DNA of 64,000 nt. Origin: a virus. The translations under genes and the position numbers were made by a program. The notes below the pieces were generated by a model. That model saw only the letters and a list, made by a program, of their open reading frames with translations. It was not told the DNA's origin and did no database searches. Shown in pieces: positions 10,033-53,338 of the stretch (within the stretch, counting starts at the first letter, position 1; every line of letters begins with the position of its first letter). The DNA lies in the IMG/VR virus record IMGVR_UViG_3300025154_000061, positions 28,260-92,259 of that record; one strand, given 5' to 3'.

Positions 10033-10754
10033 GCGACCGGCCCGAGTGCGTGGGGCACTACGAGGCGGGCAATCTAGAGTGCGACGGCTCGCCCTCGTGC
10101 GCGTGGCGCGCGCCGTGCCGTGCCTATCGCGATCACTGCGCGATCCGGGGGATCAACCCCGAGGTCGAGAAGGCCGCGACGCCGCCCGACGCGCTCAATG
10201 CGTTGATCTTCGCCGTGCTTCGGCAAGCCCCGCCCGAGGGTGGGTATGCCCGTGCCCACAATTCAACGCGGGGCTGGCGCCGCTTCCTCGACGCCTACGT
10301 CGACGCGCTGCCCGAGGGCGTGGTCGTGCAAGCGTCGCGCGACGTCGCCCTCGTTGGCGAACTCTACGTCGTGACGTGGGCAGGGCGCCGCGAGGGGCGC
10401 ATTCGCGCGGGCGGGATCCGGGTGCGAACGACGATGAAGGGGAACGAGATCCCGATCGTGCGTTACTGGCCGACGCGTTACGACCGCATGACGCCCGAGA
10501 TCGAGATTCGGGCAGATCTCGCACGCCTGCTCGAAGTCTTTCCGGCCGCCCGGGGGATCCCGTGGCGTTGGTCGGAAAAGCACGCGAACGGCGAGGCGAA
10601 ACGCCCGCTCGGCTCGCTTGCGTCGAAGGTGCCGTCGGAACGGATCGAGGATATCGCCCGGCTCGCCGCCCGCGCTCTCGGGGCAGGCTTGATCCGCGAC
10701 TGCCGCGTTCGCGGTTCGGGCGTCGAAGTCAAAGGGAAGGGGGAACGATCATGA
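9981..10754 (+). CDS. Hypothetical protein with N-terminal Cys cluster
   Basis: CVGHYEAGNLECDGSPSCAWRAPC; start uncertain; ATGA-coupled to next gene. Confidence 0.55.
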   Translation: MRRFDWSRRVRRLARDLGDRPECVGHYEAGNLECDGSPSCAWRAPCRAYRDHCAIRGINPEVEKAATPPDALNALIFAVLRQAPPEGGYARAHNSTRGWRRFLDAYVDALPEGVVVQASRDVALVGELYVVTWAGRREGRIRAGGIRVRTTMKGNEIPIVRYWPTRYDRMTPEIEIRADLARLLEVFPAARGIPWRWSEKHANGEAKRPLGSLASKVPSERIEDIARLAARALGAGLIRDCRVRGSGVEVKGKGERS

Positions 10755-11134
10755 CCAAGCTCGAAGACGCTCGCGCCCGGTTCGCCGCGAAGAACGGCGC
10801 CGCGAAGCCCGCGTCGACGCCGTCGCCCGAGCCCGCGCGCCCGAAGCAAAACGTCGCCGCCATGCTAGGCAAGGGGGGCGGTTCGACGGGGATCGACCCT
10901 GCCGCCATGCGCACCGCACGGGGGCGGGGTGGGCGGTTCACGCTCGACCGCGCCCACGACGACGCGACGATCGGCTTCGGCAAGTATTCGGGAACGCGCG
11001 TTTCGGTTCTCGCGAATGACGAGGAAGGGCGGGGGTATCTGCGTTGGATGCTCACCCAAGAGTTCCCCGAGGCGCTGCTCGAAATCGTGCGGCACGCTCT
11101 CGACTCGACGCCTGAACTCGGGGGCCGACGGTGA
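10751..11134 (+). CDS. Small protein with KLEDARARF leader and FGKY-G (DUF3820/ExoX C-terminal-like) domain
   Basis: MTKLEDARARF...IGFGKYSGTRVSVLANDEEGRGYLRWML. Confidence 0.65.
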   Translation: MTKLEDARARFAAKNGAAKPASTPSPEPARPKQNVAAMLGKGGGSTGIDPAAMRTARGRGGRFTLDRAHDDATIGFGKYSGTRVSVLANDEEGRGYLRWMLTQEFPEALLEIVRHALDSTPELGGRR

Positions 11135-11397
11135 TCGACGTCGCCCGTCTGCGCGCTCGACGCGAGGGCTCGATCCGCTTCCCGGTCGAGAACGCCGGGA
11201 GGCTCGACGTCGTGCTCGGCTTCGGCCCGTTCAAGGGCTACGCTGCGAGCGCGATCGCGCTGACGTCGAGGGGGCGCGCCTACCTGTCGCGCCTTTGGTG
11301 CGAGCACGGGCTACCGCACGCGGTCAAGAGCGCGATCGCGTGGCAACTAGAGTTCGCGCTCGACGAGCCCGACTCACTCTTCGGCGAGGTGTGCTGA
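11131..11397 (+). CDS. Small protein, probable paralog of the preceding FGKY-G domain
   Basis: LGFGPFKG...RGRAYLSRL; GTGA-coupled. Confidence 0.55.
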   Translation: MIDVARLRARREGSIRFPVENAGRLDVVLGFGPFKGYAASAIALTSRGRAYLSRLWCEHGLPHAVKSAIAWQLEFALDEPDSLFGEVC

Positions 11398-14300
11398 ATG
11401 CCCGAGAACTTCGTTCACTGCCACGTTCACACCCACGCGAGCGCCTTCGACGGGCTCGGCACCGCGAGCGACTTCTTCAAGCGGGCTGCCGAAATGGGGC
11501 AAGTCGCCCTCGCGACGACCGAACACGGCACGCTGCGCGGGCTCTACGAGGCGACGACGGCCGCGAAAGAGACGGGGGTCAAGTTCATCCCCGGGTGTGA
11601 GTTCTACCTCGCCGACGACGCCCTCGCGCGGGGGTTGACGAAGGAAGAGAAAGCCGCGATCGAAGGGGCGGCCGCCCGTGACGGCGGCGATCCGAAGGAA
11701 CTCGCCAAGGCGGCCGAGCGCCTGCGCCGCGAGCGCGATCACGTCACGGTTTGGGCGCTCGACGACGAGGGGCTCGGGAACTTGATCGCGCTCTCGTCGT
11801 GGTCGTGGCGAGAGGGCTTCTATTACAAGCCGCGCGTCGACGTCGCCCGGTTGACGTCCCGTTCGCGCGGGCTCGCGATCTCGACGGGCTGTCTCGGGGG
11901 CGTCGTTTCGGCGCCGCTGCGAGTCGGCGACGTGCGCGTCGCGTTCGACCGCCTCGACCGCCTCGTCGCTGCGTTCCCCGGGCGAGTCTACGTCGAGCTT
12001 CAACCGCACTGCCCGCCCGGGGCCGAGGGGCTCGCCGAGAAGCTCGCCCGGCTCGCGCGCGACTACGATTTACCCGTGATCGCGACGCAGGATGCGCACT
12101 ACCCCCGCCGCGACGACAGCGTCGCGCAAGAGGCCCTCTTGTGCGTGGGGACGCGCGACAAGATCGCGAACCCCGATCGCTTCCGCTTCGACTCTCGCGA
12201 GTATTGGCTTCGCTCGCGCGCTGAAATGGCCGAGGCGTTCGCCGCGAACTGCCCCGGGCTCTCGTCGCTCGTCGTCGAGAAGGCTCTCGACGAGACGGTC
12301 GCCTTCGCTGAACGGTGCTCGGCCCGGCTTGCCCTCCCCGGCGCGGGCGCCTACCTCGCCGCGCCCGCGTTGCCCGAGGGCGTGACGACCTACGATGCTT
12401 GGTTGCTCCACCTCTGCGCGATCGGTTCGATCGCGAGATATGGCAAGTCTATTTCCGATCTTCCGACCGAGCACCTCGCCCGGCTGCGCGCCGAACTCAC
12501 GACGATCAAGAGCCTCGGCTTCGCTGCTTACTTCGCAATGGTCTACGACCTGCGGGCGTGGGCTCGCGCGCAAGGGATCTTCGTCGGCCCGGGGCGTGGG
12601 TCGGCCGCAGGCTCGCTCGTTGCCTACCTCGCGAGGATCGTCGACGTCGACCCGATCCGACACGGGCTGTCGTTCGATCGCTTCCTCGCACCCGGCCGCG
12701 TCGACCTGCCCGATATCGATCTCGACTTTGAAGACGAGCGCCGCGACGAGGTGCTCGTCTACCTGCGCGAGCGCTACGGCGAAGACCGGGTCGCGCATAT
12801 CTCGACGGTGGGAACGATGCGGGGGAAGAGCCTCGCCCGCGACCTCGGCCGGATCTATGGCGTGCCCGATCGCGACGTCTCGGCCGTCGCCTCGGTGCTA
12901 CCCGACGCGACAGAAGACGTGCCTATGATCGAGGCCCTCGCCTCGACCGCGATCGGCCGCGAGTTTGCCGAGCGCTACCCCGACGTCGTCGACGTGGCGA
13001 CGCGCCTCGAAGGTCAAATGCGCGGGGTGGGGCTTCACCCCGCAGGCGTGGTCGTCTCGCGCGTTCCTGTCGCCACGATCGCCCCGGTCGAGACTCGCCC
13101 GCGCAAGGGCGGGGAACGGGTCGCCGCTGTCGCGTGGGATATGGTGGCGGTAGAGAAGGCGGGGTTCGTCAAGATCGACGTGCTCGGGCTGCGCGCGCTC
13201 TCGTTCTTGCGGCGCGCCTGCCTGCTCGCCGGGATCGCCGACCCGACGACGATCGAACTCGAAGACGCCGAGGCCCTCGACGCCTTCACTGCGCACCGCT
13301 TCGGCGGGATTTTCCAGTTCGACACGCCCTCGGCCCGCAAGGCTTGTCGGGGGTTCGTCTTCCGCCGCTTCGCCGATATCGCCGCCATGACCGCGCTCGA
13401 CCGCCCCGGCCCTATGCAGACCGGCATGGTTGCCGAGTTCGTGAAGCGCAGTGAAGATCCGTCGCTCGTGCCCGCGTTCAATCCCGTCTACGATAGGATC
13501 ACCGCCGAGACGTTCGGGGTCGTGGTCTACCAAGAGCAGATCGTCGCGCTGGCCCGCGAGCTTGCAGGCTTCACGCCCGAGGCCGCCGACAAGTTCCGCA
13601 AGGCGATCTCGAAGAAGAAGCGGGAAGAGGTCGATGCGATCCTGCCCGTCTTCGTGAAGGGCTGCGTCGACGTGGGCGGGATGGATCGGGGCGACGCCGA
13701 GAAGTTTGCAGAATCATTGGAGGGCTTCGCCGAGTATTGTTTCAACAAGGCGCACGCGATCTCGTATGCCGCGATCGCGCTTTGGTCAATGCACTTGAAG
13801 GTTCACTATCCCGAGGCGTTCTTCGCCGCGTTCTTGCAGACCGAGCCGAACGCCCAAGTTCAATTGAGAGTCGCCGCCGAGGCCCGGCACCTCGGGATCC
13901 CGGTCATGCCGCCCGACGTCAACGCCGCCGCCGAAGGGCTTACGCTTGCCTATTCCTCGACCGGGGCCGCGCAGATCGTGAACGGGATCGCCGAGATCAA
14001 GGGGATCGGCAAGCCGACCGCCGCCTCGATCGCGGCCCGCGCGCCGTTCAAGTCGCTTGTCGACTTCTACGATCGCACGGCTGGCGACGGGCTGCGCGTC
14101 ACGGTCGCGACGTTCGAGCTTCTCGCCCGCGCTACCGCCTTCCGCTCGCTCTTCCCGAGCGTGCGCTTCCTCGTCGAGAACGCCCGCGAGGTGTGGGATT
14201 GGTTGAAGGTGGGGGTCGAGCCCGTGCTCGACGTCGACTACGACTACGACGGCGACACGATCGCTCGAATCGCTGGCGAGGTGTGCCCGCTCTACGTCGA

Positions 14301-15000
14301 CGCGAAGGGGCGTTCTGCGTTCACGGTCGTCGAGCGCCTACTTCGAGAGGGGACACGCCGCGAGATCGCTACCGTGGGCGAAATCGCCGACGCTGGCGCC
14401 TACGTCGTGCTCGCCCGCGTCAGCGCCGCCCGGCTCTTCTCGGAAGACGGGGGCGGGAAGACGCTTCGAGTGCTGCTATCCGACAACGAGGGCGCCGAGG
14501 TCGCCGCGAAAGTCGATCAAGACGTGACCGAGGCGACGCTCGGGGTGCTCGACGATCCCGGTCGGCTCGTGCTCGTCGTGTTGCGCGTCTCGAATCGCGG
14601 GATGATCACGGTTGAAGTCGGGCTCGACGCGAACGCAGCGATCACCACGTCTTCGCCGCTCGCCGACGCGATCTTGCGCCCGAAGCGCACGAGCCCCCGC
14701 GACCCGGGCGCCGCCCTCGAACGCACCCCGCCCGACGCGTCGTTCGCTGCCGAGGGCGTGGTCGTGCGATCCTTGAAGCGCCGCGACAAGTCGGGGGGCA
14801 AGCTGCGCGTCGTGACCCTTGCCGGTTCGGCGGGCTTCGCGCGCTTCTTCGTCTTCGATCGTCGGCACCGCGCCGACGTCAAGGCGCTGACCGTCGGCGC
14901 TCGGGTGCGCGTCAAGTTGACGCGCCTCGAAGGCGACGCCGCCTGCCTCGCCGACGCGGCCGTCGAGGTGTGCGCGACGCTTGCGCCCGCCGTTTCGTAA
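11398..15000 (+). CDS. dnaE: DNA polymerase III alpha subunit (family C)
   Basis: PHP HCHVH, TEHG, GCEFY; GPGRGSAAGSL; PDIDLDF; KIDVLGL; YQEQI; FNKAHA; C-terminal OB-like folds. Confidence 0.97.
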   Translation: MPENFVHCHVHTHASAFDGLGTASDFFKRAAEMGQVALATTEHGTLRGLYEATTAAKETGVKFIPGCEFYLADDALARGLTKEEKAAIEGAAARDGGDPKELAKAAERLRRERDHVTVWALDDEGLGNLIALSSWSWREGFYYKPRVDVARLTSRSRGLAISTGCLGGVVSAPLRVGDVRVAFDRLDRLVAAFPGRVYVELQPHCPPGAEGLAEKLARLARDYDLPVIATQDAHYPRRDDSVAQEALLCVGTRDKIANPDRFRFDSREYWLRSRAEMAEAFAANCPGLSSLVVEKALDETVAFAERCSARLALPGAGAYLAAPALPEGVTTYDAWLLHLCAIGSIARYGKSISDLPTEHLARLRAELTTIKSLGFAAYFAMVYDLRAWARAQGIFVGPGRGSAAGSLVAYLARIVDVDPIRHGLSFDRFLAPGRVDLPDIDLDFEDERRDEVLVYLRERYGEDRVAHISTVGTMRGKSLARDLGRIYGVPDRDVSAVASVLPDATEDVPMIEALASTAIGREFAERYPDVVDVATRLEGQMRGVGLHPAGVVVSRVPVATIAPVETRPRKGGERVAAVAWDMVAVEKAGFVKIDVLGLRALSFLRRACLLAGIADPTTIELEDAEALDAFTAHRFGGIFQFDTPSARKACRGFVFRRFADIAAMTALDRPGPMQTGMVAEFVKRSEDPSLVPAFNPVYDRITAETFGVVVYQEQIVALARELAGFTPEAADKFRKAISKKKREEVDAILPVFVKGCVDVGGMDRGDAEKFAESLEGFAEYCFNKAHAISYAAIALWSMHLKVHYPEAFFAAFLQTEPNAQVQLRVAAEARHLGIPVMPPDVNAAAEGLTLAYSSTGAAQIVNGIAEIKGIGKPTAASIAARAPFKSLVDFYDRTAGDGLRVTVATFELLARATAFRSLFPSVRFLVENAREVWDWLKVGVEPVLDVDYDYDGDTIARIAGEVCPLYVDAKGRSAFTVVERLLREGTRREIATVGEIADAGAYVVLARVSAARLFSEDGGGKTLRVLLSDNEGAEVAAKVDQDVTEATLGVLDDPGRLVLVVLRVSNRGMITVEVGLDANAAITTSSPLADAILRPKRTSPRDPGAALERTPPDASFAAEGVVVRSLKRRDKSGGKLRVVTLAGSAGFARFFVFDRRHRADVKALTVGARVRVKLTRLEGDAACLADAAVEVCATLAPAVS
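14974..14999 (+). promoter_or_regulatory. GCGACG-N16-CGTA putative phage promoter
   Basis: Exact motif upstream of HU gene. Confidence 0.65.
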
Positions 15001-30935: not shown

Positions 30936-31111
30936 ACCGCGCCGACGACCTCGCCCTCGTGCTCGAAGTCTTCGCCGTGCGTTGGGTCGGGCAGACCTGC
31001 GCCCGCCTCGCTGGCGCGCAGACGTGGGCCTACGACCTCGACGTTCGCGAAGTGGGCTACCTCGCCCGGGTCGTGACGTTGATCGCGACGCCTGCCCCGC
31101 CTGACGCGTAG
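30932..31111 (+). CDS. Hypothetical protein
   Basis: GTGA-coupled. Confidence 0.45.
   Translation: MNRADDLALVLEVFAVRWVGQTCARLAGAQTWAYDLDVREVGYLARVVTLIATPAPPDA
31085..31110 (+). promoter_or_regulatory. GCGACG-N16-CGTA putative phage promoter
   Basis: Exact motif. Confidence 0.7.
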
Positions 31112-31139: not shown

Positions 31140-31349
31140 GTGAAGCTCGCCGACGCCCGCCAACGCCACGACGAACGCACGCCGCGCGAGGTGCCGATCG
31201 TGCATTGGGCGGATCCCGCGCCTGACGCGCCGGGCTTTCGTTCGGTGCTCGCCGTCTGCGGGAACCTCGCGGGCTTCGCTGCGACGCACGCCTACGACAC
31301 GACCTGCCCCGAATGCCTCGCCCGGTTGCGCGAAAGGTCGGGGAAGTGA
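31140..31349 (+). CDS. KLADAR-leader protein with Cys/His motif
   Basis: MKLADARQRH...VH...CG...TCPEC. Confidence 0.65.
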   Translation: MKLADARQRHDERTPREVPIVHWADPAPDAPGFRSVLAVCGNLAGFAATHAYDTTCPECLARLRERSGK

Positions 31350-31759
31350 AGCTCGCCGACGCCCGCGATCGCTTCGTGCGTGGCGTCCCGACGTCGACGC
31401 CGCCCTTCACCGCTTCCGAACTGCTCGCCGCGTTGAAGGCGGCCCGCCTTCCGCTGACCGCTGGCGAGTTCGACGCAACGCACGAGTGGGCGATCCGCTA
31501 CGGGCTGCCGCTCGCAGACGTGGTCGAGCGCATGAAGAAGGCGACCGACGACAAGGCCCTCGAACGCGCACAACGCAAGCGCCTCGACGCCAGCGCTCGC
31601 GCGCAGATCGACGCCGCGTTCGAGGCCCGCGAGCATTCGCCCGAAGCGCACGAGAGCCGCACCGCTGCGGATCTCTACCGGGAGGGGCACACTGTAGCCG
31701 ACGCGGTCGCGATCGTCGTGGAATCGGCCGCCGCGTTCGCCAAGAGGGGCAGGCCGTGA
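31346..31759 (+). CDS. KLADAR-leader protein
   Basis: MKLADARDRFVRGVPTSTP; GTGA-coupled. Confidence 0.65.
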   Translation: MKLADARDRFVRGVPTSTPPFTASELLAALKAARLPLTAGEFDATHEWAIRYGLPLADVVERMKKATDDKALERAQRKRLDASARAQIDAAFEAREHSPEAHESRTAADLYREGHTVADAVAIVVESAAAFAKRGRP

Positions 31760-32484
31760 AGCTCGCCGACGTGCGCGCCCGCTTCGAGAAGGGGGTTCCG
31801 ACCTCGACGCCCGAGGTCGAGGCCGTGACCGAGCCCGCCGAGCGCCCCGAAGACTACGGGCCGCACCTCTTCTCGACCCGCGAGCAACTCGAAAAGCTCG
31901 CCGACGCGTTCAAGGCTGGCGCGGTGTCGGCGAGTGCCTTCGGCGAGGCGTTCGCCCGCGTGGGTCGTTCGTTCGCCCACGGCTTCGGCACGCCGCCGAC
32001 GTTCGTAATGTCGCTCGAACTGGCCGAGGCATACAAGAAGGCCGGGATCTCGGGCGTCAGCGTCGAGGGGCCGACGGTCGATCGCGTCGCCGGGATCAAG
32101 GTCGTGACGAGCCCGCACGTTCCAAAGGGGACCGTGCTAGTCGTCGGCGACGATCCATTCGCGGGGGTGAAGGGGATCTTCGACGACCCGCCCGCGCACC
32201 CCGCCTGTCGGTGCGGGATCGATCACGGCTTCATGGCCGAAGACGCGCTCGCGCTGTCGAGGATCTCGGCCGACCCGTGCGGCTTCGAGGCCCGCTTCCC
32301 GCGCCTCTTGAATCGCGACTTCAAGTTCGCCGCGCAGGCTCGCGCCGCAGGGCTCGCCGCCGCCGCGTGGGTCGTGCGCCTCTTCGCCTCGGTGGTCGGA
32401 GGCAGTCGACCGCCCGAACCCCGCGCCCGGTCGCCTACCTGCGCCCGGTTCGGGGCGCTTCTTGCGTGTCAACCGATAGGCTAG
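31756..32484 (+). CDS. KLADAR-leader protein
   Basis: MKLADVRARFEKGVPTSTP; GTGA-coupled. Confidence 0.6.
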   Translation: MKLADVRARFEKGVPTSTPEVEAVTEPAERPEDYGPHLFSTREQLEKLADAFKAGAVSASAFGEAFARVGRSFAHGFGTPPTFVMSLELAEAYKKAGISGVSVEGPTVDRVAGIKVVTSPHVPKGTVLVVGDDPFAGVKGIFDDPPAHPACRCGIDHGFMAEDALALSRISADPCGFEARFPRLLNRDFKFAAQARAAGLAAAAWVVRLFASVVGGSRPPEPRARSPTCARFGALLACQPIG

Positions 32485-32491: not shown

Positions 32492-32520
32492 CCAACCCCG
32501 CACGCCAAGCCGACCCGCGA

Positions 32521-32600
32521 ACAATCGACACAAGCCCTTCGCTTTTTTCTTGCGACGTTTACGCCCTAGACGTAAAAGGAAGGCGTCGGCAATGACGCCG
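32521..32600 (+). repeat. 80-bp promoter/leader cassette, copy 1
   Basis: One mismatch to 33989-34068; contains TTGCGA-17-TAAAAG and a leader hairpin. Confidence 0.9.
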
Positions 32601-33946: not shown

Positions 33947-33988
33947 ACAGCCCTATCGCTCGGCCTCGCCTGCCGTGCGGCCTTCCCG

Positions 33989-34068
33989 ACAATCGACACA
34001 AGCCCTTCGCTTTTTTCTTGCGACGCTTACGCCCTAGACGTAAAAGGAAGGCGTCGGCAATGACGCCG
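33989..34068 (+). repeat. 80-bp promoter/leader cassette, copy 2
   Basis: Matches 32521-32600. Confidence 0.9.
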
Positions 34069-39598: not shown

Positions 39599-40132
39599 CT
39601 AGAGGTCGTCGGGCCAGCCTTCGCCGCCCCGAGGAACCCCGCCCGGCTCGTCTTCGTCGAACGCGGCAGGGGCGGGGCAGCGAGCCCACAACGTGCGCCC
39701 GACACTCGGGCTCGGGTCGGCCCGCTTGCCTGCGCTCGCTGCCGCTCGCGTGCGTGAGGCGGGCGCGGTTTCCGGGGTGGAATCACGGGCGCCCGGCGCG
39801 GGGGTGGGAACGCCGGGCGATGTCTTCGACGGGGCGCGTCCTATCTTGGGAAGCTCGGGCTCGCGTGCCGTGGTCGCCATAGGGGCGATCTCGTCGGTGT
39901 AGAAGGTGTGCGTCGCCCGCTTCGTCAGCGAGTCAACGAGGTTCCGCATTTCGACGAGGCGCTTCCGGTCGACCTTCCCGAGCCCGTCGCAGACGTAGCG
40001 CGAGACGACGTCGATCACGTCGCCGAGCGTGCCGACTCGCCCGGCGATCCCCTGCGCGGCGGCGGGGGCCTCGACCTTGACGGTCGCCGGGCGCTTGGCG
40101 TCGAACTTGGCGCGCACCCCGTCGAGCTTCAC
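39599..40132 (-). CDS. KLADAR-like leader protein
   Basis: MKLDGVRAKF; GTGA-coupled; C-terminal extent uncertain. Confidence 0.55.
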   Translation of the reverse strand: MKLDGVRAKFDAKRPATVKVEAPAAAQGIAGRVGTLGDVIDVVSRYVCDGLGKVDRKRLVEMRNLVDSLTKRATHTFYTDEIAPMATTAREPELPKIGRAPSKTSPGVPTPAPGARDSTPETAPASRTRAAASAGKRADPSPSVGRTLWARCPAPAAFDEDEPGGVPRGGEGWPDDL

Positions 40133-40908
40133 GACGGCGCCCCCTCGGCCGCCTTCGCCTTCTGCCGCTCGGTGTACCAAGGCAGGTCGCGCCCTTGGTA
40201 GTCGAGCCCCTGCTTTTCCTCGAAGCCGTGCGGCAGAAAGGGCATATAGACGCGGGGGTTGACCTGCTTGCGCCAGCACGCCGCGACGAGCGCGCGCAGG
40301 CCCTCGCCCGGCTTCCGGCGCATGATCTCGACGTCGAGCGGATCCGACACCCACGCGAAGACGAGATAGTCGGGCGCGCGGTTGACCGTGGTGTACGAGG
40401 GGTGGGGGTTCGGCGGATAGCTCTTGACGTCGATCTCGGTGCGCGTCAGGCCGCACGCGTGCGCCTCGATCTCGGCAAGCTCGGCGCGGGCCTTGGCATA
40501 GGCGCCCGCCCCAAACCCCTGCGTCGAGTAGGTCAAGCCCCAAGCCTCTTCGATCTTCACGCGCTCGCCGCCCGTGGCAGGCGACGCCAGCGGGATCCCC
40601 CGGGCTGCCTTGTCGAGCACGGCCTCGATCGTCTTCTTCCGCGCGTCGTGCTGCCGCGAGCGCTCGTCGTAGCGAGCTTGCAGCGGCAGGCGGATCGCCT
40701 CGACCGCTTCGGGGCCGAGCTTCCCGCAGACCTTCGCGCGCCAACCGTCGCCGACAAGGTCGAGCTTCGACTTCGGGAAGGCCGCCCGAAAGGCGGCGCG
40801 GTGCGCCTCGTCGAGTTCGACGTTCAGCGCGGCGCAGTCTTCGTCGTAGGCGGCGCGCTCTTCCCCGAGCAGATCGAACGCGCGCTTGAACGTCTCACGG
40901 TCGGTCAT
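40129..40908 (-). CDS. Hypothetical protein
   Basis: GGGGG RBS; typical codon usage. Confidence 0.7.
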   Translation of the reverse strand: MTDRETFKRAFDLLGEERAAYDEDCAALNVELDEAHRAAFRAAFPKSKLDLVGDGWRAKVCGKLGPEAVEAIRLPLQARYDERSRQHDARKKTIEAVLDKAARGIPLASPATGGERVKIEEAWGLTYSTQGFGAGAYAKARAELAEIEAHACGLTRTEIDVKSYPPNPHPSYTTVNRAPDYLVFAWVSDPLDVEIMRRKPGEGLRALVAACWRKQVNPRVYMPFLPHGFEEKQGLDYQGRDLPWYTERQKAKAAEGAPS

Positions 40909-41128
40909 GGCGAACCCCCGGGAAGTTGCGATAGGCGGCGCCGCGAGCGGCCGTGCCCGGCGAGCAGTTCGTCGCCGCCATGCGCCGCAGCGCGAAATCG
41001 TAGGCGGCCGGGTCGAGCACCTTCACGCCTTGCTTGCGAAAGGCTGCGAATAGGCGTGCCTTAGTATCGTCGGGGATGAACCGACCGGGGTCGGGATCGT
41101 GCGCGAGCCTCGCCTCGTAGAGCTTCAC
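40895..41128 (-). CDS. KLADAR-like leader protein
   Basis: MKLYEARLAH; GTGA-coupled. Confidence 0.5.
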   Translation of the reverse strand: MKLYEARLAHDPDPGRFIPDDTKARLFAAFRKQGVKVLDPAAYDFALRRMAATNCSPGTAARGAAYRNFPGVRHDRP

Positions 41129-42093
41129 CGCTTCGCCCCTGCGACGTGAACGTCGAACTTCTTCCCGAACGCCTCGAACGCCTCGCGGTCGCCGGGCCGC
41201 GCCTTCTCGAAGACGATCTCGATCCGGTAGGTCACGAGCGCCCCGCCCGTCACGGCGGGAACGAAGTCGATCTTCTTGATGCAGCGCGGGAACACCTCGA
41301 CGACGTGCGCCGCCGTCGCCTTGTTGGGCGCCGTCGTCGGGCGGCCGAAGCGCGTCGACTCGGCGCCGAGCGAGACGTCGACGAAGACCGCGACCGTGCT
41401 CTTCGTCTCGCTGCGCAGCGTCGCGGGGTGCCGCCCGTCGTGGAATAGCCCGGGGTTCGCGTCGCGGATCTGCCGCGCGAGGATCGAGTTGACGTGCCCG
41501 TCGTCGGGATCGTAGTCGGCCGCCGTCTTCACCGCAGGGGCGACCTCGGTAAAGACCGGCTTCGAGGGCGCCGGGGCGCACTCGTGAACGCCGAACTCGT
41601 GCCCGCAGTCGCGGCACTCGGTGAAGACCTCGCCGAACTCGTCGGTCCTCCCGATCGAGAGCGTGCCCGATCCGCACTTCGGGCAGGTCATTTCGGCGAG
41701 CGCACCCGGGAAGGTGTAGACGTCGCGCGCCCGCCTCGACTTCCCGACGAGCGTCATGGGCGACGGCTCTTCGTAGGGGTTGGCGAGCGGGATCGGCGCG
41801 CCGCCCCTGCGCCCGGCGACTCGGTCTAGGTCGTCGAGCGTCGGGAACGTCGCGCCTGCCGCACCGCCCGACGGCAAGGCCGCCGCCAACGGATCCCGCT
41901 CGATCGCCGCGATCGCCCGCTTCACCCGCGCAAGGGCATTGAAGTCGACCCGGCCCTCGGCGACGATCAAGGCCCGCACGCGCTCGAACGTCTCGTCGAC
42001 CGTGCTCGACGCGAGCCCCGCGACCGCGACCGGCGCCGGGGCTGGCGTGGCGACGGTGCGGGCGAAGCGTGCGCGAACGGCGTCTACCTTCAT
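41125..42093 (-). CDS. KLADAR-like leader protein with Zn ribbon
   Basis: MKVDAVRARF...CPKCG...CRDCG. Confidence 0.65.
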   Translation of the reverse strand: MKVDAVRARFARTVATPAPAPVAVAGLASSTVDETFERVRALIVAEGRVDFNALARVKRAIAAIERDPLAAALPSGGAAGATFPTLDDLDRVAGRRGGAPIPLANPYEEPSPMTLVGKSRRARDVYTFPGALAEMTCPKCGSGTLSIGRTDEFGEVFTECRDCGHEFGVHECAPAPSKPVFTEVAPAVKTAADYDPDDGHVNSILARQIRDANPGLFHDGRHPATLRSETKSTVAVFVDVSLGAESTRFGRPTTAPNKATAAHVVEVFPRCIKKIDFVPAVTGGALVTYRIEIVFEKARPGDREAFEAFGKKFDVHVAGAKR

Positions 42094-42101
42094 GCCCCAA
42101 C

Positions 42102-42383
42102 CTACGCGCCGGGCTCGGCGAGCGTCGCGACGCTGCGGTGCTTGTCGCAGAACTCGACCCGCCCCGATTGGTGCGCCTTGTCGCACGAGAACTCGGCGAG
42201 GCACGTCTCGCAAAGCCCCCGGTCAGGCTTCGGGCGGTGCGAGTGGCAGTCGATCACGGGCCGGGCGCCCGAGGTGCGCGCGAGCTTGCAGGCGGGCGCG
42301 TCAATGCACGAGGCGCAGAGGTCGACCGGCGCAGGCGGGCGCCTCACCTTCGAGAACTGCGCGCGGGCGTCGGCGAGCTTCAC
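42102..42383 (-). CDS. KLADAR-leader protein with duplicated Cys motif
   Basis: MKLADARAQF...LCASC..C..CHSH / LCETC..C..CDKH. Confidence 0.65.
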   Translation of the reverse strand: MKLADARAQFSKVRRPPAPVDLCASCIDAPACKLARTSGARPVIDCHSHRPKPDRGLCETCLAEFSCDKAHQSGRVEFCDKHRSVATLAEPGA

Positions 42384-43268: not shown

Positions 43269-43514
43269 ATGAAGTCGATCGCCGTCGCGCTGCTCGCGCT
43301 GCTCGCCGCCTGCGCCGAGACCTCGGGGCCGTCGCTCGACTACCTGCCCGGGGTGTGCTTCGAGGGCGAGCGCGTCTCGTGCCCGAAGTGCGACTCGGGG
43401 TGGGGGACGTGCGTCGACTACCGGGGCGCGTGCGAGTGCAACGTCGAGCCCGTCGACTTCGACGACGTCACGCCCGACGAAACGACCGAAACCGAAGAAG
43501 GAATCAGCGAATGA
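43269..43514 (+). CDS. Small Cys-rich lipoprotein
   Basis: MKSIAVALLALLAAC lipobox. Confidence 0.7.
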   Translation: MKSIAVALLALLAACAETSGPSLDYLPGVCFEGERVSCPKCDSGWGTCVDYRGACECNVEPVDFDDVTPDETTETEEGISE

Positions 43515-44128
43515 AGAGGCTCGAAGGCCGCGTGCTCGACCTGCTTGCACTGCTCGAAGACGACGAGGCGATCTGCGAGGCGATCAACCGGGGTTACGTC
43601 GTGTCGCAGGGCGGGATCACCTCGACTCACAAGGGGCGGGCCGCGCTCGTCACCGCCCGTGCGATCAAGCAGTGGTTCGACGACGGCGCCAAACCGCCCA
43701 ACCCCGAGCCCATGCGGATCGAGTTCTACGATCCGATGTGGAAACGCGGGCGCTCGGCCGAGGTGTCGACGATCGAGGCGCGCGTCGTGGCGCTCGCGCA
43801 GGTCGACGACGAAGCGTTCGCGCTCGAACTCGCCCGCCGCCTGAACGCCATGCTCGCCGAGCCGGGCGGCGAGGCCGCGATCGACGTGCTCTTGAACCTC
43901 TCGGCGCCCGTGGCGCCCGAGTTCGCGGCGACGATGCAGCGCGAGCCCCCGGGCGACCGTCTCGGCGTCTTCGCGTTGATCGCCTGCCTGTCGGGGCTGC
44001 CGTCGCACTTCGCCGCAGTGGCGGGGGCGCGTGAGTGGGACGCGACCGAGATCCCCTTCAAGGGCTTCTGCCTCGTCGGCTTGAAGAAGCCGCAGCCCGC
44101 GCCCAAGCCCGAAGAGGTGCCCGAATGA
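43511..44128 (+). CDS. Hypothetical protein
   Basis: ATGA-coupled. Confidence 0.6.
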   Translation: MKRLEGRVLDLLALLEDDEAICEAINRGYVVSQGGITSTHKGRAALVTARAIKQWFDDGAKPPNPEPMRIEFYDPMWKRGRSAEVSTIEARVVALAQVDDEAFALELARRLNAMLAEPGGEAAIDVLLNLSAPVAPEFAATMQREPPGDRLGVFALIACLSGLPSHFAAVAGAREWDATEIPFKGFCLVGLKKPQPAPKPEEVPE

Positions 44129-44529
44129 AACGCGCCGCATTGCAGGCTCGCAAGCTCACCCGCGCGATCTTCAACCTGCACTTGAAGTGGCCCGCTTGGT
44201 GGTGGCGCCGTCGCGTCGCCTTCTTCGCCCGCGTGGCCCGCGAGCGCGACGAACGCGACGGCACAACGCGGCACACCGAGCGCTTTCGCAAGGTCTTGTC
44301 GCGCGAGCGCCCGTGGTCGACGTGGCGCGCCTTCCGATGGGTCGCGGGCTTCGCGACGATGATCGCGCTCGGGGTGATCCCCCTGTTGCTGGCGATCGTC
44401 GGCGCGGTCTTCGAGAAGTTCTTCGAGATCACCGCGCCAAAAATCGAGAAGGCCGTCGAGGTGATTCGGGGAAACTACCCCGATCGCCGCGCGCCTGTCG
44501 ACGTCAAGTTCGGGAGGGCCGACGAATGA
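44125..44529 (+). CDS. Membrane protein
   Basis: One long hydrophobic segment; coupled. Confidence 0.6.
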   Translation: MKRAALQARKLTRAIFNLHLKWPAWWWRRRVAFFARVARERDERDGTTRHTERFRKVLSRERPWSTWRAFRWVAGFATMIALGVIPLLLAIVGAVFEKFFEITAPKIEKAVEVIRGNYPDRRAPVDVKFGRADE

Positions 44530-44921
44530 AGCGCGCCCTACGAAGCAACGGCGCTGCGCTGCAAGAGGCGGCGGGCCAGATCCTAGCGCTCGTGCGCGCG
44601 TCGTGGTGTGCGACCCCGCTCGACGCCGCGATCTCGCGTGAGTTCGGCGAGGGCTCGGCGGCCCGCGTGCGCGAGGCCCTCGCCTACCTGCTCGACGGCC
44701 CGCTTCAAGACGTCTGCGACGGGCGCCCCGTGCTCGTCGCGCTGACGCCGCTCGAAGCGCGCACGCTGTCGAGCGCGGCCGGGCAGACCACCGGGGATCC
44801 TGACGCGATCAAAGGTTGGTTCAGCGGGCCGGACGAACGCGCCGCTGTCTTGTCGGCGCACTGTCGCCTTGATCGCGCGGCGTCGCGCGCCCTCACCTAC
44901 CGGAAGGGATCCCGTCCATGA
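44526..44921 (+). CDS. Hypothetical protein
   Basis: ATGA-coupled. Confidence 0.55.
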   Translation: MKRALRSNGAALQEAAGQILALVRASWCATPLDAAISREFGEGSAARVREALAYLLDGPLQDVCDGRPVLVALTPLEARTLSSAAGQTTGDPDAIKGWFSGPDERAAVLSAHCRLDRAASRALTYRKGSRP

Positions 44922-45313
44922 AGCGCGAGGAACTCACGACGATCCGGTTGAAGGTCGAGACGCTCGGCCGCCCGCTGCGCGTCTTCATTGCCAGCCCTTA
45001 CGCGGGCGAGGTCGAGCGCAACGTCAGGCGCGCGAAGCGTCTCGTCGTCGACGCGCTCGCGCTTCACTGCGCGCCCTACGCGCCGCACTTGCTCTATGTG
45101 AACCACCTCGACGACAACAACCCCGTCGAACGCCAGCGCGGGATCGACGCGGGGCTCGCGTGGTTGGAAGCCTGCGACGAGGTTTGGTCGTGGGGCTTGA
45201 TCTCTCCCGGGATGCTTCGCGAGATCGAGCACGCGAACTCGCTCGGGATCAAGGTGCGCTTCCCGTGGGGGCTCGACCCTTCGTGCGTCGCGCTCGTCAG
45301 GGGGTGCGCATGA
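44918..45313 (+). CDS. Nucleoside 2-deoxyribosyltransferase-like (DUF4406-type) protein
   Basis: VFIASPYAG, APHLLY, WLEACDEVW, SPGMLREI. Confidence 0.75.
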   Translation: MKREELTTIRLKVETLGRPLRVFIASPYAGEVERNVRRAKRLVVDALALHCAPYAPHLLYVNHLDDNNPVERQRGIDAGLAWLEACDEVWSWGLISPGMLREIEHANSLGIKVRFPWGLDPSCVALVRGCA

Positions 45314-45639
45314 AGACCGAGATCGAGATCCGTAAGATAATCGACGAGTTGCGCTTGTCGATCGCGCTCGCGCGCGATCCCGACTGGCGCAGCGACGACA
45401 GCCCGCCCCGATTGAACGTGCTCGTCGACGAACTCGAAGCACTGCTCGACGAACTGTGCGCGAGCGACGGCAGGTTGCCCGGTCGCCTCGACGGCACGGG
45501 CCGCCTGTGCCTCGCGCTCTACGGGCGCCAAGCTCGCCCCCGCGACTACCTCGGGGGCAGCGAAGCGAGGATGCTTCACGACGCGGCCGACAAGCTCGAA
45601 GCCGCCAACACGAGAGGGGGTGCGCCTTGTGGGTCATAA
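45310..45639 (+). CDS. Hypothetical protein
   Basis: ATGA-coupled. Confidence 0.5.
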   Translation: MKTEIEIRKIIDELRLSIALARDPDWRSDDSPPRLNVLVDELEALLDELCASDGRLPGRLDGTGRLCLALYGRQARPRDYLGGSEARMLHDAADKLEAANTRGGAPCGS

Positions 45640-47511: not shown

Positions 47512-48200
47512 TCGGATTACAAACGACCGCAGTTCTCGACCTGCCCGGTCGGCACTTCGTGATCCGCTGTCACGAGGGCGACCACGTCACGAACCGGATC
47601 GAAGCCGACGGGGGCTACGAGCGCGAGCTTCTCGCACGCGTGCTCGCGCTGAACCCCTCGATCCCCGCCGACCGCGTCTTCGTCGACGCAGGCGCCAATA
47701 TCGGCACTCACTCGATCTTCTTCGCCGTCGTCTGCAAGCGGCGCGTCGTCGCGTTCGAGCCGCAGATCAACAACTACGCGCTCTTGGCAACGAACGTCAC
47801 GTCGAACGGGCTGCCCGTCGAGACGCACTTCGCCGCCCTCGGCGACGCGCACGGCGTCGGGCACGTCGTCGTCGAAGACCCCGCGAACATGGGGCGTTGT
47901 CGGTTCGTCCCGGGCGGCGGGGGCGTCAGCGTCCCCGTGCTGCCGCTCGACGCCGTGCGGTCGTTCGACCGCGTCGCCGTGGGGCTCTTGAAGGTCGACG
48001 TCGAAGGAATGGACGCGGCAGTTCTGCGCGGCGCCGCTCGCCTGCTCGCCCGTGATCGCCCGGTCGTGATCGCCGAGGCGCACGAGCCCGCCGACCTCGC
48101 CGCGATCGAAGCTGCGCTCGGCCCCGACTACGTGCGCGACCCCGAGCCCTACTGCGCGACGCCTACCTTCGTTTGGCTTCCGCGCGAGCCCCGCCCGTGA
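47508..48200 (+). CDS. FkbM-family SAM methyltransferase
   Basis: FVDAGANIGTHS, AFEP, LKVDVEG. Confidence 0.9.
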   Translation: MIGLQTTAVLDLPGRHFVIRCHEGDHVTNRIEADGGYERELLARVLALNPSIPADRVFVDAGANIGTHSIFFAVVCKRRVVAFEPQINNYALLATNVTSNGLPVETHFAALGDAHGVGHVVVEDPANMGRCRFVPGGGGVSVPVLPLDAVRSFDRVAVGLLKVDVEGMDAAVLRGAARLLARDRPVVIAEAHEPADLAAIEAALGPDYVRDPEPYCATPTFVWLPREPRP

Positions 48201-48406
48201 AGCTCACCGACGCCCGGGATCGCTTCGCTCACGCCGAGGCCCCGCCGCCAGTAGAGCCGACGACGCTCGCCCTTCGCGGCGCGCAGTTCGACGAGATCTG
48301 CGCGGCCGTGCGTGCCCGCCGCATGACCTTCGCCGACGTCGAGCGCCTTCACTCGCCCGACGTGCGGCGCGCCGTCGAGGCTCTCGTCGGGCCGTCGAAG
48401 CGATAG
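48197..48406 (+). CDS. KLADAR-leader protein
   Basis: MKLTDARDRF; GTGA-coupled. Confidence 0.6.
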   Translation: MKLTDARDRFAHAEAPPPVEPTTLALRGAQFDEICAAVRARRMTFADVERLHSPDVRRAVEALVGPSKR

Positions 48407-48438: not shown

Positions 48439-48467
48439 TTGACGCCCCGCCGCTCTTGGGGCACTCT
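48439..48467 (+). promoter_or_regulatory. Sigma70-like promoter
   Basis: TTGACG-17-CACTCT. Confidence 0.45.
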
Positions 48468-48522
48468 CGGCCCGTAACCTGCGGCGACTACGCCGCGAGA
48501 CTTCCAAGGGGAGGATCGAACG

Positions 48523-49140: not shown

Positions 49141-49171
49141 CCCCCTTCCCGCCTCACTCCCCGCCCGCACC

Positions 49172-49197
49172 GCGACGCCCGACCCCTCCCCGACGTA
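49172..49197 (+). promoter_or_regulatory. GCGACG-N16-CGTA putative phage promoter
   Basis: Exact motif. Confidence 0.65.
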
Positions 49198-49227
49198 AAC
49201 TCGGGCGACTACAACGAGGGGGCCGAA

Positions 49228-49836
49228 GTGCTCGACGAGTTCAAGGTCGACGTTCCCGAAGGCAAGAGCGGCGAGGTCGAGATCAAGCGCTTCGTCGTCG
49301 ACGCGGCCGGTTCCGCGTTTACGAAGATGCGGGCCGCCATGAAGGGGCGGGGCTACGTCCCCGAGGGCACCTACACCGAGATCCGGCGCGCTGGCGTGCT
49401 TTGGATGAGCGACACGCCCGACGAGATCCGCGATCACCTCGGCTTCATTGGTCGGGCCTCGGGGCGCGTGCTCGTGACCGGGCTCGGCCTCGGAATGGTC
49501 GCGGCCGCCTGCCTGCGCAAGCCCGAGGTCGAGAAGGTCGTCGTCGTCGAGATCGACCCCGACGTCGTCGCGCTCGTCGCCCCGCACCTCGTCGAGCAGT
49601 TCGGGGATCGCGTCGACGTCGTGCTCGCCGACGCCTACAAGTGGAAACCCGCCGAGGGCTCGCGGGTCTTCGACTGTGCGTGGCATGACGTTTGGCCCGA
49701 TATCTGCGGCAGCAACGCGCGCAAGATGCGGGCGATCGTGAAGCATTACGCGCCCTTCATGACGGCGCCGGGCTTCTTCGCACGGCAGGCTTGTTGGTGC
49801 GAGCGCGAGACGGCGCGCGAGAACCGCCGTCGGTGA
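49228..49836 (+). CDS. Class I SAM-dependent methyltransferase (spermidine-synthase-like)
   Basis: WMSDTP, VLVTGLGLG, VVEIDPDV, ADA, WHDVW. Confidence 0.8.
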   Translation: MLDEFKVDVPEGKSGEVEIKRFVVDAAGSAFTKMRAAMKGRGYVPEGTYTEIRRAGVLWMSDTPDEIRDHLGFIGRASGRVLVTGLGLGMVAAACLRKPEVEKVVVVEIDPDVVALVAPHLVEQFGDRVDVVLADAYKWKPAEGSRVFDCAWHDVWPDICGSNARKMRAIVKHYAPFMTAPGFFARQACWCERETARENRRR

Positions 49837-49844
49837 CGCCGAAC

Positions 49845-49873
49845 TTGACGGCGTATCCCCTGCGGGTGACACT
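49845..49873 (+). promoter_or_regulatory. Sigma70-like promoter
   Basis: TTGACG-17-GACACT; shares AACTTGACGGCGTATCCC with 57833. Confidence 0.55.
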
Positions 49874-49896
49874 ACCGGCAACCGAGGGGGGAAGCC

Positions 49897-51549: not shown

Positions 51550-51605
51550 ACGATCCCGACTTCTCGTGCTAGGCTTCCCGCCGTGACACGGTCCCGAGGA
51601 ACACC

Positions 51606-51986
51606 TTGACCACCAACGAGATCGCGGAAGAACTGACCCGGCTCGAACCGCTCGTCGCCGGGCTCGCGAAGAAGGTCGATCGCGCGACCGCCCGGGGCGT
51701 GGGCGAGGCGTTGCTCGAACTGCGCAAGAGCGCGGGGGCCGACGAGCAGATCTCGAAGTTGATCGACTCGCTCTTCGCTTCCGCGCTGGCGTGCTCGAAG
51801 GCGGCGTCGGCGTCGCGGCCCGGCATGGCGGCGTCGCACGCGACGGCGCTCGCCCGTCTGCTCGCGAGCACGCTCGAAGTCGTGCGGGGGCAGGCAAGGT
51901 CGACGCAAACGTCGCCGCCTGCGGCCGACGTCGTAGCGGCGTGGCCCTCTCGCTTCGACGGGCAAGTGCTCGTCGTGAAGGGGTAG
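51606..51986 (+). CDS. Hypothetical protein
   Basis: GAGGA RBS, TTG start; upstream TAGACG-17-TAGGCT. Confidence 0.55.
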   Translation: MTTNEIAEELTRLEPLVAGLAKKVDRATARGVGEALLELRKSAGADEQISKLIDSLFASALACSKAASASRPGMAASHATALARLLASTLEVVRGQARSTQTSPPAADVVAAWPSRFDGQVLVVKG

Positions 51987-51989
51987 AGC

Positions 51990-52946
51990 ATGGGCGACCA
52001 GATCGAGCGACTCACCGCCGAAGACCTCGCCGGATCCGGCGCCGCACGCGAGCACGTTCCCGCGCTGCTCGAACGATTGAACCTGCTCGTCGACCGCGCC
52101 AACGCTGGCGGCGACTCGGGGCTCACCTTCGAGACGATCGCCGCGCTGCGCGCGCAGTCAACCGAGGGCTTCCTATCCGGCCGTGCCGCGATCGTGAAGG
52201 CGGCGCAGATCGGCGGCGAAGGCCCGGCCGTCGCGGTCGAGTTCCTCTTCGCCGCGACGGTCGACGCGACGCTCTTCGCCGCCACCGACGAGGCGCGCGC
52301 CGAGGCCGAGGCGGCGCTCGTCGTGATCCCCAACGCGATCTGGCAAACGACGAAGGTCGGCGCGTGGTTGGGGGCGCTTCCCGCTGCCTACAACGGGGGC
52401 GGCGACACGGTCTCTTCGACGGGCAAGCTCGACGAGGCGATCTTCTCGGGGCACGTCTACTTCGGCGGCGAGACGGGCGGCGCGCCTGCCGAGCCGATCC
52501 TTCCGATCGACGAGTTCGTCGCCCCGTTTGCGTTCAATCCCGACCGCATTCGCGATCAAGACGGCGTCTACCTAGACGCGTTCCTGTCGGCGGCCGGGAA
52601 CGGCGCGGGGGCGGAGGGCAACGCCGACTTCCCGAACACGACGCGGCACGTATTCGCGCAGACCCTACGCTTCAAGGTGCGCCTGTGGGCGCTCCGCAAC
52701 GACGAGTTCGTCGCGCACGACGTCTCGCCCGCGATCGAGATCTCGCCCGTTCAACCGCAGGGGCGTTGGTCGCTGGCGCGCGTGTCGTGGCAGATCACGA
52801 AGCAAGACCTGACCCCGCCCGAGGGGTTCTCGGTCGTGGCGTGGGGGCTACAGGGCTACTGCGCCGGGTTGAACGCCGCGATCGTCCCGCACGTCGTTCT
52901 GACGATCTCGAACACCCCGGGCGGGCCGCCGTGGGTGAAGCTGTAG
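51990..52946 (+). CDS. Hypothetical protein (possibly virion-associated)
   Basis: Beta-rich C-terminus; AAGGGG RBS. Confidence 0.6.
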   Translation: MGDQIERLTAEDLAGSGAAREHVPALLERLNLLVDRANAGGDSGLTFETIAALRAQSTEGFLSGRAAIVKAAQIGGEGPAVAVEFLFAATVDATLFAATDEARAEAEAALVVIPNAIWQTTKVGAWLGALPAAYNGGGDTVSSTGKLDEAIFSGHVYFGGETGGAPAEPILPIDEFVAPFAFNPDRIRDQDGVYLDAFLSAAGNGAGAEGNADFPNTTRHVFAQTLRFKVRLWALRNDEFVAHDVSPAIEISPVQPQGRWSLARVSWQITKQDLTPPEGFSVVAWGLQGYCAGLNAAIVPHVVLTISNTPGGPPWVKL

Positions 52947-52971
52947 CGACGCGGGGCGCCCCGTCTTCGTA
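52946..52971 (+). promoter_or_regulatory. GCGACG-N16-CGTA putative phage promoter
   Basis: Exact motif. Confidence 0.7.
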
Positions 52972-52993
52972 GAAGATCGCGAAGGTGGTAGAC

Positions 52994-53338
52994 GTGAAGC
53001 TCGCCGACGCCCGCAAGCGGTTCGACAAGACCGAGAGCGCCCCTGCGCCAACGCCCGCCCCGGCGCCCGCGTCGCCGAACCCGTTCACTCTCACGACCTC
53101 GACGACGACCCCGGGCGAAGGCGGCACGACCTCGGTCGTGTTGCTCTTCCGCTGCTCGTCGAAGCTCGTCACGCTCGCCAAGAACGACGCCAAGCTCGGC
53201 GACGCCCTTCGCGCCTCGCTGCAAGTCGCGACGGCCGAGGCGCACCCGGGCGCCGAGGTGATCTCGTTCGCTTGGGCTCTTCGCCCGCAAGACCGCGATC
53301 TCGACTTCGAGGTGCGGGCGATCGTTCGCCCGTTCTAG
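52994..53338 (+). CDS. KLADAR-leader protein
   Basis: MKLADARKRF followed by a P/A/T linker. Confidence 0.65.
   Translation: MKLADARKRFDKTESAPAPTPAPAPASPNPFTLTTSTTTPGEGGTTSVVLLFRCSSKLVTLAKNDAKLGDALRASLQVATAEAHPGAEVISFAWALRPQDRDLDFEVRAIVRPF

Follow-up and report, generated by a model that had tools for sequence, protein, structure and literature searches.

A short N-terminal peptide shared by unrelated small proteins of environmental phages: a candidate docking tag

The window analysed here is a 64,000-nucleotide (nt) stretch, bases 28260-92259 of a single 92,259-bp viral contig with 68% G+C (IMG/VR record IMGVR_UViG_3300025154_000061). It contains ten genes whose products begin with variants of one peptide of about ten residues, KLADARxRF (the tag), mostly followed by a linker and then by dissimilar sequence. 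The phage encodes a myovirus-type structural module, an XkdF-type prohead protease, a sigma factor, a DnaE-type polymerase, a MoxR/CbbQ-type AAA+ ATPase and a CobT-like VWA protein. A megablast search with 20 kb against 50,697 isolated phage records returned no close relative. Genes were called with a self-trained codon-bias caller (n = 111). The tagged genes all lie in the non-structural part of the genome and are, in coordinates of the window:

10751..11134, plus strand: tagged gene, 127 amino acids (aa); MTKLEDARARF, a 45-residue disordered tether and a C-terminal domain, putatively of the ExoX-like_C/DUF3820 type.
31140..31349, plus strand: tagged gene, 69 aa; MKLADARQRH, a linker and a Cys-containing body.
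31346..31759, plus strand: tagged gene, 137 aa; MKLADARDRF, a GVPTSTP linker and an all-helical domain; GTGA overlap with the upstream gene.
31756..32484, plus strand: tagged gene, 242 aa; MKLADVRARF, a GVPTSTP linker and an unrelated body.
39599..40132, minus strand: tagged gene, 177 aa; MKLDGVRAKF, a divergent copy.
40895..41128, minus strand: possible tagged gene, 77 aa; MKLYEARLAH, marginal, with the GTGAAGCTC start in common and in the same operon.
41125..42093, minus strand: tagged gene, 322 aa; MKVDAVRARF, a TPAPAP linker and a CPKC...CRDC zinc ribbon body.
42102..42383, minus strand: tagged gene, 93 aa; MKLADARAQF, a PPAP linker and a Cys-rich body.
48197..48406, plus strand: tagged gene, 69 aa; MKLTDARDRF, an APPP linker; GTGA overlap with an FkbM-type methyltransferase gene.
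52994..53338, plus strand: tagged gene, 114 aa; MKLADARKRF, an (AP)n linker; a promoter-like site in front.

All ten peptides had been listed in an earlier, sequence-only reading of the window. Each was present, and the codon-usage caller independently chose the same start codons. The G+C content at third codon positions was 0.87 in the tagged open reading frames versus 0.88 in other genes and reached its maximum in the called frame; the tagged frames are therefore genuine genes. The regular expression K[LV].[DE][AV]R..[FH] had eight matches in 27,719 residues, all of them at residue 2-3 and none internal, so that the motif is commoner at N-termini than inside proteins. A looser expression matched ten N-termini (residue 2-3) and one internal site, and a six-frame scan of the whole 92-kb genome with regular expressions revealed no additional tag. 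With a position matrix the ten copies scored 19.0-26.5 bits, and the best other six-frame match, in a non-coding frame, scored 14.2 bits; the score distribution was bimodal. A stricter test used a matrix trained solely on the seven core copies. Here 39599 and 41125 scored 10.5 and 10.4 bits at residue 2, internal positions reached at least 10 bits at a frequency of 8e-5, and approximately 0.025 such matches were expected among the other N-termini. The copy in 40895 (KLYEARLAH) scored a marginal 7.4 bits with this matrix. Membership is accordingly seven firm, two probable (39599, 41125) and one possible (40895), and these data confirm that the shared tag is real, far beyond chance.

Other details of the earlier description also held. 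Exactly four copies, those starting at 31140, 31346, 52994 and 42383, have the 21-mer GTGAAGCTCGCCGACGCCCGC in common, and 7 of the 10 tagged starts lie in a 4-nt GTGA or ATGA overlap with the upstream gene. The P/A/T linker was evident as 20% Pro in residues 12-31, compared with 4.7% in other proteins (P = 4e-7).

An exhaustive phmmer search with the product of 10751 recovered 136 metagenome homologues with a C-terminal ExoX-like_C/DUF3820-type domain in common. The motif was found within the first 32 residues in 97 of these 137 sequences (query included), with Leu at residue 4 in 61, and many of the homologues lacking it were obviously start-truncated. N-termini such as MPTLEELRRWL, MPTLDEVRRRF and MKLSDARARF yielded the consensus M-P-T-L-[DE]-E-[LIAM]-R-x-[WR]-[LF]; the Arg was present in 96/97 and an acidic residue at motif position +2 in 86/97. 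No Pfam model covers the tag peptide. Relatives of the phage were found by pattern scans of IMG/VR, and large contigs were taken whole: G001 (85 kb), G002 (93 kb), G004 (107 kb), G006 (113 kb) and G007 (105 kb). These have 31-41 genes in common with the phage, at 25-55% identity and in the same order, and contigs L067-L069 display the same synteny. By chance, approximately 0.13 tagged proteins per genome were expected. The numbers found were:

G001: 1 tagged protein.
G002: 3 tagged proteins.
G004: 4 tagged proteins (MPTLEEIRSRF, VPTLDELRARF, MPTLDDLRERF, MPTLDELRRRF).
G006: 7 tagged proteins (VKLDELRKRY, VKLTDLRKRY, MKLNELRHRY, MKLRDLRRLF, VDLNEFRHRY, MPTLDELRSLF, MAPSLAEMRDRF).
G007: 2 tagged proteins.

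The 27 tagged proteins of the six genomes contained just two orthologous groups, one of the ExoX_C type and one with a WGR domain (E ~5e-15); the rest were mutually unrelated. Tags were more alike within than between genomes, both as amino acids (0.54 vs 0.44, P = 6e-4) and as nucleotides (0.66 vs 0.56, P < 2e-4), and they run in genome-specific "dialects" (MPT, MKL). The comparison with related phages that had been suggested thus came out in favour of the tag, which heads unrelated proteins in at least five relatives as well as in the 136-member family. It is conserved over a clade of 85-113-kb environmental phages, in which 10751 is the ancestral, clade-wide tagged gene. The exact 21-mer had no match in viral contigs, and a degenerate back-translation of MKLADARxRF had 1, 6 and 9 matches in viral, metagenome and genome collections; these lay inside longer frames, with 43-369 open codons upstream (one exception stops after 7 codons), and are therefore chance matches. 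The W-L dialect pattern gave 0 matches in viral contigs, tblastn of 10751 against isolated phages gave nothing, and we found no mention of a KLADARxRF peptide in the literature. MPTLDEIRGYF-type strings occur internally in the jumbo-size viral contigs L039, L040 and L044 (195-221 kb), at 159-474 codons inside members of a conserved family of long proteins; either chance or a domain boundary within the protein could account for them.

The sequence-only reading had also named two looser relatives of the tag. One of them, the N-terminus of the single-stranded DNA-binding protein (LGKLRDRH), scored 5.8 bits and is noise. The other is probably genuine:

56597..56626, minus strand: probable C-terminal tag copy; SLAEVREKFS, residues 239-248 of the 253-aa Zn-ribbon protein 56579-57340.

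With the clade-wide matrix this segment scored 17.7 bits and beat all other internal matches. It ends five residues from the C-terminus, behind a long P/E/A linker, and is probably a true copy mirroring the N-terminal architecture. A second C-terminal match, TLEQLRDRWR, occupies residues 134-143 of a 144-residue protein of G007. A tethered copy at the C-terminal end fits a docking peptide and argues against explanations that invoke the start codon or the nascent chain.

Nucleotide identity among the copies was 71% in codons 1-10 and 31-39% in the flanks. Positions 2, 3, 5, 6, 7 and 10 were constrained, with proportions of nonsynonymous (pN) and synonymous (pS) differences of 0.157 and 0.333, while positions 4, 8 and 9 behaved neutrally (pN 0.516, pS 0.461); this is the synonymous versus nonsynonymous comparison that had been proposed. 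The idea of conservative substitutions on an amphipathic helix was likewise borne out. Codon changes preserve residue class, some of them by two-nucleotide changes (CGC/AGG for Arg, CTC/GTA for Leu/Val, GCC/GTG for Ala/Val). On a helical wheel the invariant or near-invariant K2, L3, A6, R7 and F10 fall within one 0-140 degree arc; positions 4 and 8, which vary most, are on the other side of the wheel, at 200-240 degrees.

Same-codon pairs were more frequent than expected from codon usage (196 observed vs 141 +/- 14, P = 5e-5), which indicates recent intragenomic copying. The ancestry of the tag DNA is more recent than that of the unalignable bodies, implying that the tag-coding segment was copied or converted. 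Across genomes the same peptide is encoded by different DNA (ATGCCGACGCTGGAYGAG vs GTGAAGCTCGCCGACGCC), and in G002, G004 and G007 the same tag residues are encoded by many different codons. A peptide that is kept while its codons vary freely is under selection as a peptide. The earlier suggestion of a DNA cassette that seeds gene shuffling therefore holds only in a secondary way: the segment has been copied recently within this genome, but what is kept from genome to genome is the peptide, and the DNA is the vehicle of spread, not the function. The ten copies in this phage point to an unusually large, recent local expansion. Integron-like or MITE-like (miniature inverted-repeat transposable element) cassettes were considered and rejected, since the tagged genes have no boundary repeat in common besides the tag.

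The bodies behind the linker are unrelated in sequence, as had been stated: past residue 12 there was no pairwise similarity (all E > 0.2). Only the tandem pair 31346/31756 departs from this, and its common part is limited to the first 19 residues and about 27 nt upstream; some other tagged pairs show traces of linker similarity. The bodies had no family match in Pfam and PHROG, and two tagged proteins searched against 5.8 billion proteins had no homologue; the product of 41125..42093 is an orphan in that collection. In the AlphaFold2 model of 31346, a short helix (residues 3-12, low confidence) is followed by coil and by a confident helical domain from residue 23. For 10751, modelled with 85 sequences, the prediction is a helix at 4-15 (predicted local distance difference test, pLDDT, 62-69), a 45-residue disordered tether and a domain with pLDDT 85-95, which gives no indication that the tag packs against its own body. 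The product of 10751 itself scored 15.5 bits against PF12843, under the cut-off of 22, and the homologues P0063 and P0025 scored 39.9 and 27.3 bits against PF20600 (cut-off 26.5); a C-terminal FGK..G...Y..W pattern is the hallmark of this domain type. Foldseek with the 10751 model returned nothing under E = 4 from the PDB, and look-alikes of 31756 in the ESM Atlas were dismissed as chance level (scores of 0.87 or less, few common features). The tagged proteins are basic, with a median isoelectric point of 8.9 versus 6.5 (P = 0.006). The recognisable cargo domains (ExoX_C, WGR, zinc ribbons) suggest DNA-associated roles.

Taken over the clade, gene order places two of the tagged families beside one replication module, which in the window consists of:

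6003..6935, plus strand: MoxR/CbbQ-type AAA+ ATPase, CobS-like; kept in all clade members; candidate partner module.
7101..9386, plus strand: CobT-like protein with an HExxH motif, a long acidic linker and a VWA domain with intact MIDAS; candidate tag reader.
11398..15000, plus strand: DnaE-type DNA polymerase; its start is abutted or overlapped by the tagged ExoX_C gene in relatives.

The CobS/CobT-like gene pair is widespread in phages, beside DnaE, and to our knowledge has no known function. A tagged gene lies immediately 3' of the CobT-like VWA gene in 4/6 genomes (G001, where it overlaps the VWA stop, G002, G004 and G006). The tagged ExoX_C gene runs up to or into the start of DnaE in G002, G004, G006 and L067-L069; in this phage 10751 is one small gene upstream of DnaE. 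That small gene, 11131-11397, encodes another copy of the ExoX_C-like domain, one that lacks the tag, and matches the same place in L067 and L069. The tagged WGR genes of G004 (L049:8592-9221) and G006 (L058:10664-11248) stand directly 3' of the CobT-like gene and have a C-terminal WGR domain (E ~5e-15), so that each of these phages holds a MoxR-VWA-WGR trio. The CobT-like layout comprises G[LM]LDHExxH near residue 60, a 250-residue acidic linker (up to 41% Asp+Glu) and the MIDAS. The MIDAS motif was intact in 6/6 CobT-like proteins, and G[LM]LDHExxH, followed by the long acidic linker, was kept in 5/6.

We consider it likely that the tag is a portable, tethered docking helix that recruits changing accessory proteins to one conserved partner. 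The short linear motif of about 10 residues, [KT]-L-x-[DE]-hydrophobic-R-x-R-[FY], would fold into a single short amphipathic helix at the very N-terminus, or occasionally the C-terminus, and a flexible proline-rich or basic tether would separate it from the protein body. The conserved face (L, A/V/L, R and F, with the neighbouring acidic residue) would bind one common partner. Unrelated folds would thereby be recruited to the same place, and changing accessory proteins plugged into one conserved partner. We infer that the tag acts by partner binding. The sequence-only reading had proposed a portable tag directing proteins to a common partner. Its first half stands, as the tag sits on dissimilar proteins here and in at least five relatives; for the second half the prohead, the AAA+/VWA machine and a protease are still candidates. 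A membrane, also named as a destination, is unlikely because the tagged proteins have no hydrophobic stretch.

Genomic clues can only rank the candidate partners. Our first choice, held tentatively, would be the CobS/CobT-like AAA+/VWA machine of the replication module. The prohead core comes second and is less probable, on a level with a conserved host hub; DnaE or another replisome protein would be slightly less likely again, and what is left falls to something else. A VWA MIDAS site receives its completing acidic residue from the target protein (PMC9976466), and the acidic residue of the tag adjoins its invariant Arg. A more specific version, that the tag is the handle by which the HExxH-bearing CobS/CobT-like AAA+/VWA machine recognises its clients, we regard as rather unlikely. 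If it were true, changing DNA-associated accessory proteins would be the first substrate class of this machine, and clients would be docked, remodelled or clipped via an N-terminal helix whose acidic residue completes the MIDAS.

Several observations weigh against a docking tag read in this way. The adjacency to CobT-like and DnaE genes comes from two conserved tagged families, the WGR type and the ExoX_C type, and might be owed to their bodies; in this phage all tagged genes but 10751 are far from that module, and G007 has no tagged gene beside its CobT-like gene. An additional role at the nucleotide level would be compatible with the excess codon identity in this phage. Finally, the gene models come from a purpose-made caller, and starts are predictions.

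Among the alternatives, the most serious is that the tag is a capsid-targeting propeptide which loads diverse small basic proteins into the prohead for injection with the DNA, as for the internal proteins of phage T4, and which is perhaps removed by the XkdF-type prohead protease. This would be a specific version of the docking tag with the prohead core as partner, and we hold it to be improbable, though the parallel is close in kind. The T4 capsid-targeting sequence (CTS) is a 10-19-residue N-terminal peptide on divergent proteins, of which the first ten residues suffice and residues 4 and 7 are the targeting determinants (PMC9026906; PMC3012670). T4 Alt carries a C-terminal propeptide too (PMC9026906), which parallels the C-terminal copy in 56579. 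The comparison across relatives supports the T4 precedent invoked earlier as the same kind of arrangement: a peptide of about ten residues at the N-terminus of proteins with otherwise unrelated, fast-evolving sequence, small basic cargo, genes in variable regions, and a grafting point for new accessory proteins. T4 IPII and IPIII begin MKTYQEFIAE; against this, the clade consensus MPTLDELRRRF matches at T3, hydrophobic 4, E6 and hydrophobic 7, so that the hydrophobic determinants at 4 and 7 are conserved in the MPT dialect, and the phage does encode a prohead protease. However, the resemblance is limited to this loose pattern of four or five positions, the KLADAR dialect shares less of it, and it is a possible lead, not homology. 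Neither a conserved cleavage motif of the (L/I)-x-E type nor a conserved Glu or other fixed residue follows the aromatic position, residues 11-13 being variable, and both the phage lineage and the prohead protease family (XkdF/S78) are different. No head protein scored as tag-like; an apparent resemblance in the XkdF-like protein of G002 failed scoring. All tagged genes are non-structural and belong to the region that holds 17 of the 18 copies of a promoter-like motif, the oldest is translationally coupled to the DNA polymerase, and another stands in the CobS/CobT operon; the tie is to DnaE and CobS/CobT-like genes, not to head genes. A signal for the timed destruction or cleavage of early proteins, read by a host protease (ClpXP, Lon, FtsH) or by the AAA+-driven HExxH CobT-like protein of the phage, has a lower probability still. 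The terminal position on a disordered tether is degron-like, and CobT-like proteins that keep G[LM]LDHExxH in 5/6 genomes adjoin tagged genes, yet the CobT-like protein is only a putative protease. Residue 2 varies by dialect (Pro in MPT, Lys in MKL), and Met is usually removed before Pro and retained before Lys; this makes a classical N-end-rule signal unlikely, and an N-end-rule degron was rejected on sequence. We know of no ClpX N-motif that the tag matches.

Two further explanations would deny the peptide a function of its own, and both are less probable still. Were the conserved 21-30 nt a translation-initiation or operator site or a recombination cassette, with the peptide as a by-product, one would point to the exact 21-mer in four copies, to GTG starts in 8/10 tagged copies versus 36% of all genes, and to the excess of identical codons (P = 5e-5) and of within-genome DNA likeness (P < 2e-4) described above. 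Such an element is very improbable given that the DNA differs across genomes while the peptide is kept, that variation affects whole codons along one face of the helix, that divergent copies keep their residues via two-nucleotide changes, and that the flanks are unrelated (31-39% identity) and a C-terminal copy exists. Conserved RNA structure was not found at the tagged starts either: a GAAGC/GCTTC pairing is available in 4/10 copies, and the minimum free energy did not differ from that of other starts (P = 0.09). Least probable of all is a diverged paralogue family, ten genes descended from one by duplication whose N-terminus is the slowest remnant and has no separable function. The 19 residues and ~27 nt upstream in common between 31346 and 31756, and the traces of linker similarity in some pairs, are what such a history would leave. 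It does not accommodate bodies of 69 to 322 aa with different content (Zn ribbons, all-helical, ExoX_C) and no pairwise similarity (E > 0.2), synonymous tag sites far from saturation though the bodies are unalignable, or the same tag on WGR, ExoX_C and many orphan bodies in other genomes. Two functional labels were rejected on sequence. For a Tat or Sec signal, the tag has R-x-R, not RR, and residues 12-31 are 17.5% hydrophobic versus 32% elsewhere and rich in Pro/Ala/Thr; the sliding-clamp motif QL[SD]LF misfits the [KT]-L-x-[DE]-hydrophobic-R-x-R-[FY] consensus, and the tag has helical periodicity.

A docking tag as preferred here has counterparts in other systems. T4 gp43, gp55 and gp33 have C-termini that bind the sliding clamp, and T7 gp2.5 and gp4 have acidic C-terminal tails. 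In each case a short terminal peptide docks unrelated proteins on one hub of the DNA machinery, and the cargo domains here (ExoX_C, WGR, Zn ribbons) and the DnaE adjacency would fit a DNA-associated hub. Those peptides are C-terminal, however, and have other sequences, and the clamp-like gene of the phage is not conserved in the relatives. The MoxR AAA+/VWA pairs (NorQ/NorD with cNOR, CbbQ/CbbO with Rubisco, CobS/CobT) offer a second comparison: the clade keeps a MoxR-type ATPase and a VWA protein with intact MIDAS, the tag has a conserved acidic residue, and tagged genes lie in or beside the operon. In contrast to those pairs, the link here comes from gene neighbourhood only, and we know of no MoxR/VWA system that reads a short terminal peptide common to many substrates. 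The N-terminal tag MNRYDIALGKKPPP of a different phage group is unlike the KLADARxRF tag in sequence.

Address peptides common to many proteins illustrate how a virus connects new genes to machinery already in place. Few of these systems are understood, and the T4 CTS is the best known; the KLADARxRF-type tag is unrelated to it in sequence and looks like an undescribed address label. A captured or newly born protein that bears a ten-residue handle could find its fixed partner immediately; this would account for the continued function of accessory regions in phage genomes despite their rapid change. The tag spans a clade of uncultivated 85-113-kb phages and more than 100 metagenomic proteins, and by gene order it is linked to the DnaE polymerase and to the enigmatic CobS/CobT-like motor of phages. 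It thus bears on the role of the phage "cobalt-chelatase-like" genes and on the recruitment of orphan phage proteins. A portable tag with a defined receptor would be useful for loading or recruiting foreign proteins in phage engineering.

Some additional features of the window were recorded. The promoter-like motif GCGACG-N16-CGTA stands 10-40 nt 5' of many non-structural genes, and one copy, besides the 17 already mentioned, is in the 28-kb structural module. It directly precedes the tagged genes that start at 31140, where it opens a three-gene tagged operon, at 52994 and at 42093. These sites are:

31085-31110, plus strand: GCGACG-N16-CGTA.
52946-52971, plus strand: GCGACG-N16-CGTA.
42103-42128, minus strand: GCGACG-N16-CGTA.

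The phage sigma factor gene is at 9391-10032, and the sites fit a regulon of this factor. Genes 43511, 44125, 44526, 44918 and 45310 (43511-45639) are consecutive and all begin ATGAAG(C/A), encoding MKR or MKT; ATGA overlaps run throughout this translationally coupled array and force the Lys at residue 2. An intergenic direct repeat of ~105 nt (32496-32600 and 33964-34068, 88-90% identical) contains a T-run, TTGCGACG...CGTAAAAGGAAGG and a ribosome-binding site; its copies precede genes 32615 and 34085, and it looks like a duplicated terminator/promoter cassette. A second, longer N-terminal module (35 residues, 46% identity, E = 2e-7) is common to the 177-aa protein L017:4477-5010, encoded in the head module just 3' of the major capsid gene, and to the 318-aa product of 51990-52946, a gene directly upstream of the tagged gene 52994.

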